DNA of 64,000 nucleotides from assembly GCA_963712665.1 (NCBI GenBank), contig CAVQIV010000005.1, positions 142,356 to 206,355 on the forward strand, in the 5' to 3' direction. How positions within the stretch are numbered: position 1 is the first letter of the stretch; every line of letters starts with the position of its first letter. The DNA comes from Thermoanaerobaculaceae bacterium (GTDB taxonomy: Bacteria > Acidobacteriota > Thermoanaerobaculia > Multivoradales > UBA5704). The notes beneath the pieces were generated by a model. The model was given only the letters and a program-made list of their open reading frames with translations, had not been told where the DNA came from and searched no databases. The translations under genes and the position numbers were made by a program. Below are positions 28,901-32,414 of the stretch, piece by piece.

Positions 28901-31900
28901 GACGACGTCAACGAGACGATCGCCTATACCGCCGACACCAACGCCTGGGTGTTCAAGCCCCAACTCGTCGAGGTGCGCGACGGAGCGGGCGCTCTGCTGC
29001 GCCGGCAGGCGGCCACCTATGACGCCGCCGGCGAGCTGAGCCGCCTGGAGAAGACGCTCTCCGGCGGCCGCGACCCGCAGACCGGCGCCACCTACAGCGG
29101 CACCAAGAACGCCGTCTGGACTTTCTCCTACGACGCCGCCGGGAACCTCATCTCCTCCGTCAATCCCACCGGCTACACCGCGACGTTCACCTACGACCCG
29201 CCGACCCGCAGCTACCCCGTCCAGGTCCGAGACTCCTTCGGCTATGTCACCACCTATGCCTACGATTTCAAGTACGGCGAGCTGGCCTCCACGACGGACG
29301 AGAATGGCAACGTGCTGCGCCGCGCCTACGACTCCTTCGGCCGGCTCCTGCGCGTGGTGGGTCCCGACGACAGCGACGCCTCGCCGGCGCTCGCCTTCGA
29401 GTACCACCCGGGCTCTCCGGTCTCCTCGTCCGTCGTCCACCACAAGGACGTCACCCGCCCCGATCCGATCGATTCGGCCACCTTCATTGACTCCTTGGAG
29501 CGGGTGCTTCAGACCAAGGAGGACGCCGAGCTCGACCTCGGCTCCGGCACCTCGACCCGCACCGGCATGCGGGTCAGCGGCCGGATCGCCTTCGACGCCA
29601 AGGGCCGCGTCGCCTCTCAGGGACAGCCGGCCTTCGGCAGCGGCCCGGCGAGCCAGTTCGTGGACGTCCCCGCCAAGAACCCCACGGCGTTCTCCTACGA
29701 CGCCCTCGACCGCGTGCGGGAGGTTCGTTTCCCCCAAGGGGTCACCACTCGTATCGACTACGGCTTCGGCACGCTGGACGGCGTCTCGCGCCTCCTCACC
29801 ACCCGCACCGACCCCAACAACCGGGCCACCCGCTTCTACCGCGACGTGCGCGACAAAGTCCTGGGCGTCGAGCAGGCCAACACCATCGGCCGGGTCAGCA
29901 GGACGCTGACCACCCGCTACGACTACGACGCCCTCTCCCAGCTCACCTCGGTGACCGACGCCTTGGGGAAAGCCACCCGGCTGGAGTGGGACACCCTCGG
30001 CCGCAACGTCGTGCTCGACAACCCCGATGCCGGCCGCAGAGAGCACCGCTTCGATCCGGCGGGCAACCTGGGGGCGGAGATCACCGCCAACCTGGCCGCG
30101 GCCGGCAAGCAGATCCGCTATCTCTATACCTTCGGCCGTCTCGACCGCATCGACTACCCCGATTCGCCGGACGTCGTCTACACCTACGGCGCCCCAGGTG
30201 CCTCCGCCAACCGCGCCAACCGTATCGCCACGGTAACCGACAAGTCCGGCACCGAGGACCGTTCCTACGACAAATTCGGCAACGTCGTCCTGGCGGTCAA
30301 GAAGACGATCTCCATCAACAACACCTCACCCAAGGGTCCCTACACCTCCCGTTTCCAGTACGACAGCTTCGGCCGTCTGCTCTCCCTCACCTATCCGGAC
30401 GGCGAGCAGATCACCTATGGCTTCGACGCCGGCGGGCAGGTGAAGATGGCCACAGGGACGCTCAGGAAAGCCCGCTACGACTACCTGCGCCACATCGGCT
30501 ACGACAAGTTCGGCGAGCGGGTGCGCCTGGTCTACGGCAACAACGTCGAGACCCGCTACGCCTTCGACCCGCAGTCGCGCTACCTCGCCCAGCTCCGCTC
30601 CATTGCCCCCGCGCGCGACCTGCAGAACCTGGCGTATCAGTACGACCCGACCGGCACGGTGTTGAGCCTCCAGAACAACGTGGCGTCGTCGTCGGTGCCG
30701 TCGCTCTACGGCGGCCCGACCTCTCTCACCTTCCAATACGACGACCTCTATCAGTTCACCGGCGCCACCGGCTCGTACGTGGCGGCCCTCGGCAAGACCT
30801 CGTCCTACAGCCTCACGATGGCCTATGACGAGGTGGGAGACGTCGTCGCCAAGAGCCAGCTCCACAAGACCGCTCCCTTCGGCGGCACGCCGGCGACACA
30901 GGCGAAGACCTCCTACACCTGGGCCTACACCTACGGCGGAGCGCAGCCGCACGCGCCGGCGAGAATCGGCGACCGCACCTTCCGTTACGACCTGAACGGC
31001 AACCAGACCCGTTGGGACAGCGATGGCGGCACCCGCCGCACGATCACCTGGGACGAGGAGAACCGTCCTCTCTCGGTGACCGACAGCGGCCAGGCGACCC
31101 CCACCCGCTTCCTCTACGACGCCGAGGGGATGCGCGCCAACAAGCTCGGCCTGCACGGCGAGACGCTCTACTTGAGCCGCTGGTTCTCGCTGCGCAACGG
31201 TGGCACGGTGAGCAAGCACCTCTTCGCGGACGACCTGCGCGTCGCCACCAAGGTGACGACGAACGCCGAATTCCTCTTCTTCTACCAGCCGGACCATCTG
31301 GGCTCGGCGCAGTTCATCACCGACGAGCAGGGCTCGGCCTACGCGCACCTGGAGTACTTCCCCTCGGGGGAGATCTGGGTGGACGAGCACTCCGACACCC
31401 TGAACCTCCCCTTCCTCTTCAGCGGCAAGGAGCTCGACGACGAAACCGGGCTCTCCTACTTCGGAGCCCGCTACTACGAGCCGCGCCAGGGGCAGTGGAT
31501 CAGCGCCGATCCGATCCTCGACGGGATGCTGGCCGGGCCGCAGGCAGACGCCAGCGAGCTGGAGTTCCACCAGCACGGTCTGATCTATGGCTACGCCGGC
31601 AACAGCCCGACGAACCTCATCGACCGGTTTGGCCTGGCTTTCGAGCATCTGAAGAGCGAAGCGGCGCTCGCCAAGTTCCAGAAGACTTACGGAGGCAACG
31701 CCCAGGGCACCCTCGCCCTGATCGAGATGTCGGATGGAACGCACTACATGGTCGAGCAGCAGACGAACAACCTGATCAAGGGGGCCGCAGAAAAACTCGG
31801 CATCACCTACCTCTCGCAGGCGCGGCTGTCCGGCTTTCACGCGGAAATGCGATTCATCAAGTTCGGCAATGATCAGGAGTTGTCCCTCGACGGCGCCAAG

Positions 31901-32113
31901 ATCTGGGTCTCGAAACCGATCTGTGCGGACTGTGCAGAAACGCTCGACGATTACGAGGTGGAGAGCCAGACCTCGACTTCCGACAAGCATTACCGAAACT
32001 GGGTCTCTCCCGAGACGATGAAGCCGACCGTGCCGAAGAGCGGGCGAGCGTACCAAGGGCGCCGGTCCGAGGTGCAGCAGCTCAAGGACGCCCAGCGCGA
32101 TTGGGACATGTAG
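22995..32113 (+). CDS. giant polymorphic-toxin protein: signal peptide, SpvB/TcdB-N-like region, VCBS/FG-GAP-like modules, RHS/YD-repeat shell, RHS core and a C-terminal deaminase-like toxin domain. It reads through only after ~3 single-base frame corrections
   Basis: RBS aggaggcaggtgacATG. N-terminus MSEKRFVVVPLLGLALLLITLLGFAG. SpvB-like SLAVSYDSSGGDGWLGLGWDLRLPSIEVSTIFGVPRYD. TcdB-mid-like FRWYLERTIDLNGNTVDYSY. Six xDxNGDGxPD modules. More than 20 YD repeats (e.g. YAYDFKYGELASTTDENGNVLRRAYDSFGRLL). RHS core ...LSYFGARYYEPRQGQWISADPI...NLIDRFGL. Coding sense moves between the three track ORFs (22995-, 26425-, 27023-) near 26484, 26570 and 27145. Confidence 0.85.
31636..32110 (+). other. C-terminal toxin module (~158 aa) with nucleotide/nucleic-acid deaminase zinc signature
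   Basis: After the RHS-core terminal motif (IDRFGL) comes ...LSGFHAEMRFIKFGNDQELSLDGAKIWVSKPICADCAETL. HAE is at 31838-31846 and P-I-C-A-D-C at 31916-31933, with ~26 residues between, which is the canonical deaminase spacing. Confidence 0.6.
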
Positions 32114-32183
32114 TGGATCGAACGAGGTGACGACAGCCGGGCACCGGGCGGACCGCATCTCGTGCCGCTCGTTGCCCGGCGCC

Positions 32184-32250
32184 CCCTGTCCGACACGCAA
32201 CGCTCTGTCGGCTGACACACTCGTGACCCTCTGTTTTTTCACCTGCCTCT
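32184..32250 (+). promoter_or_regulatory. conserved upstream element, copy B (partner 22805-22888)
   Basis: See copy A. Located 70 nt after the toxin stop and ~165 nt upstream of the first gene of the secretion operon. Confidence 0.55.
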
Positions 32251-32414
32251 CGCAAATCCAGTGATTCTGGCGCGCGCCCTGCCGCCGGCAGGCTCAAAAA
32301 TCCTGGCACGCATCTAGCTATATGAGAGCCGCAGAAACCTGGTCCCAAAGTCCCCCCCCAAGACGGCGGGACGCAAAAACAAAAACGGGGAATTCAATAA
32401 AGGGAGGCGTCTCT

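Follow-up and report, generated by a model that had tools for sequence, protein, structure and literature searches.

An OTT_1508-like deaminase at the tip of a fused TcB-TcC-like RHS cocoon with no adjacent immunity gene

How can a bacterium carry a deaminase toxin when no immunity gene lies beside it? This question is raised by a 64,000 nucleotide stretch of the genome of a Thermoanaerobaculaceae bacterium (contig CAVQIV010000005.1, positions 142,356 to 206,355; hereafter the window), in which a deaminase-type domain forms the C-terminal tip of an RHS protein. There is no adjacent immunity gene in the deaminase cassette, and the cognate small gene which defines a classical toxin-immunity pair is missing directly downstream of the toxin. 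It is considered probable that the C-terminal 158 residues are carried as toxic cargo by a secreted RHS cocoon of fused TcB-TcC-like type, and that this cargo is a deaminase which needs no linked immunity protein.

The domain is found at the end of an open reading frame (ORF 27023..32113, forward strand) of 1,696 residues, the C-terminal part of which reads ...NSPTNLIDRFGL followed by AFEHLKSE...LSGFHAEMRFIKFGNDQELSLDGAKIWVSKPICADCAETL...DWDM and the stop codon, with the residues ahead of the domain also given as ...YGYAGNSPTNLIDRFGL before AFEHLKSE. It spans 31637..32113 (forward strand, stop codon included). An earlier inspection of the letters and their translations (the sequence-only reading) had correctly located it at the RHS tip and had set its start at 31636, one base ahead of its first codon. 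The residues immediately preceding it, NLIDRFGL in translation (31613..31636, forward strand), are presumed to form the autoproteolytic boundary. In this tip the usual D-P-x-G-L appears as D-R-F-G-L, with D, G and L retained and P replaced by R, the corresponding tips of sister loci and homologues being VDPDGL, IDPEGF, VDPRGL, VDPGGL, VDPTGL and RDALGL; an S-A-D-P motif is present upstream. Within the domain, H68-A69-E70 (31838..31846, forward strand) is predicted to supply a zinc ligand and the catalytic glutamate, as judged from the alignment of homologues and from the HAE of T4 dCMP deaminase (1vq2), and P94-I-C96-A-D-C99 (31916..31933, forward strand), directly preceded by an invariant W-V-S-K, is predicted from the alignment and secondary structure to supply the remaining zinc ligands. 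The spacing from E70 to C96 is 26 residues, as had been estimated. An alignment of 16 sequences, 39-64% identical to the window domain, has shown that A69, E70, C96, C99, W90-V-S-K93, W122 and P125 are invariant, while H68 is kept in 15 of the 16, being D in P0008. The HAE...PxCxxC signature which had been recognised by eye is consequently borne out by this conservation, by its place at the end of an RHS protein and by the Pfam assignment that follows.

The best Pfam match of the 158-residue domain is PF14441, the OTT_1508-like deaminase family (E = 2.5e-5), with weaker matches to APOBEC3, NAD2, APOBEC_N and MafB19; the toxin tip has no match in NCBIfam. PF14441 is also the top match for all five members of set A1 (best E = 4.3e-7), is present as precomputed annotation on P0003, P0004, P0006 and P0012, and is matched by 37 of 44 further relatives, down to E = 3.6e-12. 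Profile comparison of the family with distant PF14441-type relatives by hhalign returned a probability of 99.6% (E = 8e-25, 97 columns), in a comparison set that had itself been recruited using the window family's own profile. Together with the conservation of the motif, these matches uphold the earlier identification of the tip as a toxin domain of the deaminase superfamily. The likening of the domain to the DddA-, YwqJ- and MafB19-like clades has not fared as well, since MafB19 matches the window domain at E = 0.15 only (0.0021-0.0036 at best among homologues) and the SCP1.201 and YwqJ models match neither the domain nor its homologues in the Pfam scan, so that these identities are ruled out. 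The OTT_1508-like clade was described in 2011 by Iyer, Zhang, Rogozin and Aravind, who defined it by a GxxK preceding the CxxC and by an extended loop linking strand 4 with helix 4 and bearing an aromatic-x-x-P, and who placed it in the Helix-4 division alongside AID/APOBEC and TadA (PMC3239186). In the window domain the aromatic-x-x-P is represented by W122-V-S-P125, of which W and P are invariant in the 16 sequences. Features specific to the subfamily are also apparent, namely strong conservation of the N-terminal half (GG-x-x-QGT, EQ-x-T-N, Y-x-x-Q-x-R) and an RRSE-x-x-RL helix at the C-terminus. Judged by its profile matches and motifs, the domain is a divergent and rare subfamily of the known OTT_1508-like clade, and not the new deaminase clade that had been thought possible.

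The rarity of the subfamily is evident from searches at several depths. Four relatives were recovered by a word-indexed search and 15 once a profile was used, while 21 at E <= 1e-10 emerged when 1.84 billion representatives were searched exhaustively by profile. A scan of 185,579 species genomes identified three loci, in Sorangium sp. So ce1099, a Myxococcota metagenome-assembled genome (MAG) and Methanosarcina sp. T3, and members so far derive mostly from environmental metagenomes. The module is not confined to RHS proteins: it has been found in a VgrG/PAAR-like gene cluster (locus L010), on Peptidase_C80, and on DUF4157/eCIS_core proteins (P0007, P0013, P0014 and Methanosarcina locus L008), a carrier which we take to be the scaffold called 'PVC metallopeptidase' in the 2011 description of the clade. 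The Methanosarcina gene (L008, 9155-10459) is an archaeal DUF4157-deaminase fusion of the window family with 434 residues. It lies 1.6 kb downstream of a repeat-rich protein of 1,100 residues that appears tail-fibre-like by eye, which suggests cargo of an extracellular contractile injection system (eCIS) in an archaeon. In L010 (972-8576), VgrG, DUF4280 (PAAR-like) and the deaminase P0012 are followed by three DUF4157/eCIS_core proteins in a row, uninterrupted by any small gene, an effector array without immunity genes. Six homologues (P0001, P0002, P0017, P0020, P0021 and P0022), of which P0001, P0017 and P0022 are RHS-borne, end in basic tails resembling a nuclear localisation signal (NLS) or in tails rich in arginine and serine. 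Examples are GRKRKRED, KRRKV, KKIKKHRK and RSRSRR...RKRSRSR, and the Arg/Ser-rich tail of P0017 comprises 61 residues.

A structural model of the domain was obtained with AlphaFold2 from the 16-row alignment, with a predicted local distance difference test score (pLDDT) of 90.3 and a predicted template modelling score (pTM) of 0.78. The modelled order of elements is beta-beta-(insert)-helix(HAE)-beta-helix(CxxC)-beta, in which HAE and CxxC occupy the N-termini of the predicted helices 69-79 and 97-105, respectively. When the model was compared with the PDB by Foldseek, the resulting list consisted almost wholly of guanine, dCMP, tRNA (TadA/ADAT2), cytidine and APOBEC3 deaminases, with a best E of 0.015; DddA was not among the top 50. 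Neither Pfam nor Foldseek revealed an affinity of the window domain to DddA or SsdA.

The protein that carries this domain is a fused TcB-TcC-like ('BC') RHS cocoon of approximately 3,050 residues, encoded at 22995..32113 on the forward strand and recognised through Pfam, NCBIfam, a tblastn match to P0017 and DNA identity to the sister locus L014. From the N-terminus, it comprises a signal peptide, a ZU5 domain, SpvB, an FG-GAP propeller, TcdB_toxin_midN, RHS repeats, the Rhs-associated core and the toxin tip. Matches are strong for SpvB (PF03534, E = 3.8e-27), TcdB_toxin_midN (PF12256, E = 2.6e-21), the RHS repeats (PF05593, E = 1.1e-35) and the core (TIGR03696, E = 1.4e-14). ORF 22995..27086 contains the signal-peptide-like N-terminus, ZU5, SpvB and FG-GAP, and ORF 27023..32113 contains FG-GAP, TcdB_toxin_midN, the RHS repeats and the core. 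The N-terminal extension of some 485 residues ahead of SpvB (22995-24450), with its signal-peptide-like start, ZU5 (E = 3.4e-5) and a weak Rib-like match, is also seen in the sister loci. In L014, the DNA of which is 88% identical to the window over 23001-31532, the gene forms one uninterrupted ORF, at least 3,054 residues long. The same deaminase tip is carried by P0017, from a Myxococcota MAG (locus L007), an intact single-ORF BC fusion of 2,818 residues with a signal peptide.

Comparison with four sister loci (L012, L013, L014 and L015; 82-89% DNA identity) by blastn delimits the deaminase as part of an exchangeable unit. Homology ends at 31532, right after ...ISADPILD, and restarts at 32303/32304, so that the variable cassette corresponds to 31533-32303 (forward strand) and comprises a linker, the tip, the deaminase and 190 nt of non-coding DNA. 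No credible ORF is present on either strand of the 301 nt between the stop codon and the next gene (32114-32414), as had been noticed from the letters; two spacer candidates of 45 and 88 residues were discarded, being R/G/C-rich and matching nothing in the flanks of other loci, and neither a decayed nor an indel-hidden immunity ORF was found in this interval. A GC-rich hairpin without a T-run (32136..32180, forward strand) follows the stop codon, the fold of 32110-32200 having an energy of -43.3 kcal/mol (z = -2.15). A scan of 32050-32450 for sigma-70 promoters and intrinsic terminators gave nothing, and Rfam returned nothing at gathering score in the whole window, with one chance-level match in the spacer.

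Regulatory signals are instead found in the spacer. The conserved upstream element that had been remarked upon there was confirmed: a stretch some 80-95 nt long that contains TGTCnGACA half-sites (CCCTGTCyGACACsCAACGCTCTGTC..TGACAC..TTTTTC..CTCGyAAAT) has exactly two copies in the window and none in shuffled sequences. The first copy precedes the toxin gene (22805..22900, forward strand) and the second, aligned pairwise with the first, begins 70 nt past the toxin stop codon (32184..32265, forward strand). Its core, AACGCTyTGTCGGCTGACAC, is also present at the 3' cassette boundary of L014 and L015. Each copy stands about 100 nt upstream of a sigma-54-like site, one ahead of the toxin gene and one ahead of a secretin operon resembling a type II secretion system (T2SS). 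The sigma-54 consensus is TGGCAC-N5-TTGC. By their fit to this consensus, putative promoters are TGGCGCCGGCCTTGCT (22937..22952, forward strand), 43 nt before the ATG at 22995, and TGGCACGCATCTAGCT (32304..32319, forward strand), which would serve the downstream operon and is conserved in the sister loci L012, L014 and L015. The two sites are the only matches in the window to a pattern, TGGC-N8-T(T/A)GC, that was derived after both had been seen. The pairing of element and promoter-like site suggests co-regulation of toxin gene and operon by one enhancer-binding protein. The 301 nt past the stop codon are regulatory DNA of the next operon and not a decayed immunity gene.

The expectation of an immunity gene at this position was a reasonable one, given that in sister alleles, where the tip is a different one, the toxin stop is shortly followed by a small gene. 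L012 and L013 encode a tip of 165 residues followed 5 nt on by a DUF6572 protein of 107 residues, and L014 and L015 encode a tip of 173 residues followed 15-17 nt on by an ankyrin-repeat protein of 210 or 217 residues. In each case a different toxin and its small downstream gene make up the cassette, of 1,190 nt in L012 (8706-9895) and 1,364 nt in L014 (8529-9892). No Pfam family was matched by the L012 and L014 tips; by eye, the former (DLVDAKSS) looks like a PD-(D/E)xK nuclease.

At the other loci bearing the deaminase, what follows the toxin gene differs from case to case: a radical-SAM gene in L001/L002, a convergent gene 600 nt on in L003/L006 (Sorangium), a large protease in L004/L005, an unrelated lipoprotein in L007, no adjacent gene in L008, an aminotransferase in L009, the three DUF4157 proteins in L010 (with the VgrG and PAAR-like genes before), a convergent methyltransferase in L011 and a HicB/HicA pair in L016. 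All-against-all BLASTP of the flanks (+/-2.5 kb) of eight other deaminase loci and the window, using stop-to-stop segments of at least 40 residues for the former and at least 30 for the latter, revealed no shared flanking protein at E <= 1e-3. Two individual candidates were also considered and rejected. The ORF after the L007 carrier has the same length, 104 residues, as the gene following the window toxin, yet it encodes an unrelated Cys-rich lipoprotein; the HicB-like gene 253 nt past the L016 carrier has its own HicA partner next to it and forms an ordinary toxin-antitoxin pair. There is precedent for such an absence, as immunity-less versions are a described theme of OTT_1508-like deaminases (PMC3239186), no immunity proteins have been found in Tc loci (PMC7861908) and most DUF4157/eCIS toxins, including the deaminase EAT11, are without immunity genes (PMC8213781).

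If the domain is the cargo of a secreted cocoon, the following sequence of events may be proposed. The signal peptide would carry the protein over the inner membrane. By analogy with Tc and Rhs proteins, the aspartyl protease of the Rhs core would cut the cargo off after ...IDRFGL, and the severed cargo would be kept inside the cocoon, probably unfolded, as in Tc toxins. Release might occur, speculatively, via the adjacent and possibly co-regulated T2SS-like system, and the delivered deaminase would act on C or A in DNA or RNA. No linked immunity protein would be needed if in the producing cell the deaminase is inactive or sequestered, or if its real substrate lies in a non-self cell, most likely a eukaryotic one; more speculatively, the NLS-like and RS-rich tails of the six homologues suggest a eukaryotic nuclear target. 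Among the three explanations that the sequence-only reading had offered, a non-kin or eukaryotic target combined with encapsulation, immunity encoded elsewhere and a new type of immunity protein, the first is the best supported, albeit indirectly. A bolder account would hold that the subfamily is harmless to its bacterial and archaeal producers and has a eukaryote-specific, probably nuclear target, and that the cocoon, Sec-exported and operating without TcA, leaves through the adjacent secretin/T2SS-like machine, co-regulated with it by way of the shared enhancer-like element and the sigma-54 promoters. The same tails hint at this, as does the fact that the deaminase is without an immunity gene whichever delivery module bears it, and the account is regarded as unlikely; if it is true, RHS cocoons would have an undescribed delivery route and the deaminase might prefer a new kind of substrate.

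Several observations weigh against the proposal of a cocoon-borne deaminase that needs no linked immunity protein. With regard to the domain, its score of 24.6 bits lies below the PF14441 gathering cut-off of 27, and of the GxxK of the clade only K93 before P-x-C-x-x-C is retained, the G being replaced by W in an invariant W-V-S-K-P-x-C where distant PF14441-type relatives read I-G-V-S-K-P-C-C. The comparison of the model with known folds, a check proposed at the outset, had a divided outcome: pLDDT is high and deaminase folds dominate the list, but no PDB match reached E <= 0.001 and TM-scores were just 0.33-0.45. The window protein's own tail has no basic NLS-like cluster. As for the carrier, its reading switches between three frames (ORF 22995..27086, then part of ORF 26425..27351, and finally ORF 27023..32113), and its tip shows DRFGL in place of DPxGL. 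TcA proteins have a size of about 2,500 residues. A Pfam scan of 20 other long ORFs of the window identified no TcA-type domain and none of these ORFs approaches that size; nor is there a TcA gene within 2 kb upstream of the L007 carrier gene. Sister alleles at the same locus do possess cassette-linked small genes (DUF6572, ankyrin), which means that the delivery system is not immunity-free in general and that encapsulation alone fails to explain the absence here. Finally, EAT11, a DUF4157-deaminase toxin that may belong to another clade, killed both E. coli and yeast (PMC8213781), leaving harmlessness to bacteria unproven for the deaminase family.

The last two points also favour another explanation, in which the protein is an antibacterial polymorphic toxin of the classical kind and its cognate immunity gene either sits at another place in the genome or disappeared as the cassette came in. 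At the identical locus, the small genes of the sister alleles begin 5-15 nt past the toxin stop, DUF6572 has been linked to immunity proteins of type VII secretion system (T7SS) effectors (PMC12558993), and the toxicity of EAT11 to E. coli points the same way. The portion of the genome covered for immunity genes is the 64 kb of the window. This explanation is nonetheless judged improbable, as there is no conserved neighbour at the other deaminase loci despite their diverse organisms and delivery modules, and an unlinked immunity gene at every one of them would be unusual.

The broken frames of the carrier raise the further possibility of a decaying pseudogene, whose toxin is no longer made and whose immunity gene became dispensable and was then deleted. 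Compared with the unbroken ORF of L014, the window shows uncompensated indels, located near 26481 (+2), 26576 (-1) and 27139 (+1), and the R at the tip where P is usual could be viewed in the same light. Against this, the deaminase domain is full-length with all conserved residues kept, and the intact L007 carrier is equally without an immunity gene. Assembly indels appear more likely than decay, since the neighbouring secretin gene is likewise frame-broken (at about 33200) and since the sister contigs L012 and L013, which come from one sample and have names that look like those of long-read assemblies, split the toxin gene at different points. Decay is accordingly given little credence.

It may also be asked whether the HAE...PxCxxC motif is fortuitous, or whether the domain is a binding module devoid of catalytic activity. 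A loose regular expression, [HCD]AE-x(20-35)-P-x?-C-x-x-C, run on the six-frame translation of the window, gave a single match, at the RHS tip, against an average of 0.16 in shuffled windows. With chance matches in about 16% of shuffled windows, the bare motif is only mildly improbable and constitutes weak evidence when taken alone. The Foldseek matches are weak, and querying the PDB with either the protein alone or the profile returned only marginal dCMP-deaminase matches at the motif (E ~0.05). The motif is made credible, as a predicted active site, by where it lies, at the tip of an RHS protein, by the Pfam match and by its conservation among homologues. Its invariance across sequences of such low identity, the consistent PF14441 matches with the high hhalign probability, and the modelled placement of both motifs at helix N-termini, as in deaminases, render a fortuitous or dead site very unlikely.

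The gene following the spacer (32415..32729, forward strand) encodes a bitopic membrane protein of 104 residues with an N-terminal transmembrane helix, in agreement with its earlier description as membrane-anchored, and is the first of an operon. It is followed by a secretin gene read here in two frames (32796..35237, forward strand; the N-terminus from 32796 matches TIGR02515 and the Secretin domain, PF00263, is found in ORF 32845..34968 with E = 1.2e-39), a T2SSE/PilB-type secretion ATPase (35533..37023, forward strand; PF00437, E = 1.3e-93) and a T2SSF-like platform protein (38854..40266, forward strand; PF00482, E = 5.1e-8). For the 104-residue protein, at least 120 clusters of homologues were found, with identities of up to 91%, and every organism-named one belongs to Thermoanaerobaculia; an exact-sequence search returned no recorded copy of this protein or of the window's RHS protein. 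Its gene is the first before the secretin in L012, L013, L014, L015, L017 and L018, with the T2SSE ATPase and T2SSF following in the full-length loci. In L017 and L018 a MacB-type transporter lies upstream and there is no RHS toxin. This constant position, even where the toxin is missing, indicates that the protein belongs to the secretion operon and not to immunity, and the existence of the operon without a toxin in these distant loci also weakens the notion that BC gene and T2SS-like operon form an obligatory pair. The suggestion that the 104-residue protein is a new kind of immunity protein, which its small size and its place as the next gene downstream had made attractive, is rejected as hardly credible, given that its homologue clusters far outnumber the ~21 of the toxin, that it also stands behind non-deaminase alleles having their own small cassette gene, that it heads the same secretin/T2SSE/T2SSF operon where there is no RHS toxin, that it has its own sigma-54-like promoter and that the flank BLASTP found it at none of the other deaminase loci.

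Other features of the window were recorded. Direct repeats of 300 nt and shorter, 93-99% identical (6103-7012, 14147-14446, 19039-19338 and 4183-4312/13905-14035), connect the regions at approximately 4-7 kb, 14 kb and 19-20 kb and resemble gene segments duplicated in the recent past. A gene for a DDE_3 transposase is located at 16812..17897, and an inverted repeat rich in G/C runs, with 54-nt arms that are 89% complementary and 103 nt apart, is located at 47296-47506.

If active, the domain would be an uncharacterised nucleic-acid deaminase of 158 residues from a very rare subfamily, and it could be of interest in prospecting for base editors. The locus also provides a natural comparison on the same scaffold and at the same site, between a toxin with a small gene in the sisters and a deaminase-only cassette here, which could help to show why an immunity protein is dispensable for some toxin families.

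Among known systems, the nearest is the OTT_1508-like clade itself. The window domain shares with it the HxE...PCxxC active site with a K just before PCxxC, the aromatic-x-x-P of the extended loop that follows strand 4 and degraded C-terminal elements. Members of the clade serve as toxin tips on polymorphic-toxin scaffolds, 'PVC metallopeptidase' included, and the immunity gene is often absent (PMC3239186). The window domain departs from the clade in its score below the gathering threshold, in the W for the G of GxxK, in its own N-terminal half and RRSE-x-x-RL helix, and in its extreme rarity. Fungal OLD proteins of Neurospora belong to the same Pfam clade and have the same HxE...CxxC centre, but they are eukaryotic antiviral A-to-I editors of mRNA and not secreted toxins (PMC12754623). 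Although cytosine was the substrate first predicted for the clade (PMC3239186), the activity of the OLD proteins implies that it is not limited to C-to-U chemistry.

With respect to the carrier, the closest parallel is offered by the TcB-TcC cocoons of Tc toxins, which have the same SpvB, propeller, TcdB_midN, RHS shell and Rhs core with a variable toxic C-terminus (PMC7861908). Tc loci have likewise been reported without immunity proteins, tcB-tcC fusion genes are on record, and the tip of Photorhabdus TccC6 is a YwqJ-like deaminase (PMC7861908). The window differs in having no TcA gene, in its N-terminal signal peptide and ZU5 region, and in the immunity-like genes of its sister alleles, which canonical Tc loci do not have; its tip of 158 residues compares with the 201-400 typical of TcC, and its deaminase belongs to another clade than that of TccC6. 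The toxins of extracellular contractile injection systems resemble the window system in that DUF4157/eCIS_core bears the same deaminase module in many homologues and in that they are mostly without immunity genes (PMC8213781). The window copy, however, is borne by an RHS cocoon and not by DUF4157, and EAT11 may be of another clade. DddA, of the SCP1.201 clade, and SsdA, both toxins of type VI secretion systems (T6SS), are also interbacterial-type deaminases at the C-terminus of a delivery protein, yet their place is in the C-terminal-hairpin division, and a cognate immunity gene lies next to each of them, DddI and SsdI, respectively (PMC7901873). OTT_1508-like deaminases lacking immunity genes, TcC proteins tipped with a deaminase and BC fusions have each been described before and current understanding is not overturned, so that the window locus is a good fresh example of the immunity-less habit of a known toxin class, and not a new kind of system.

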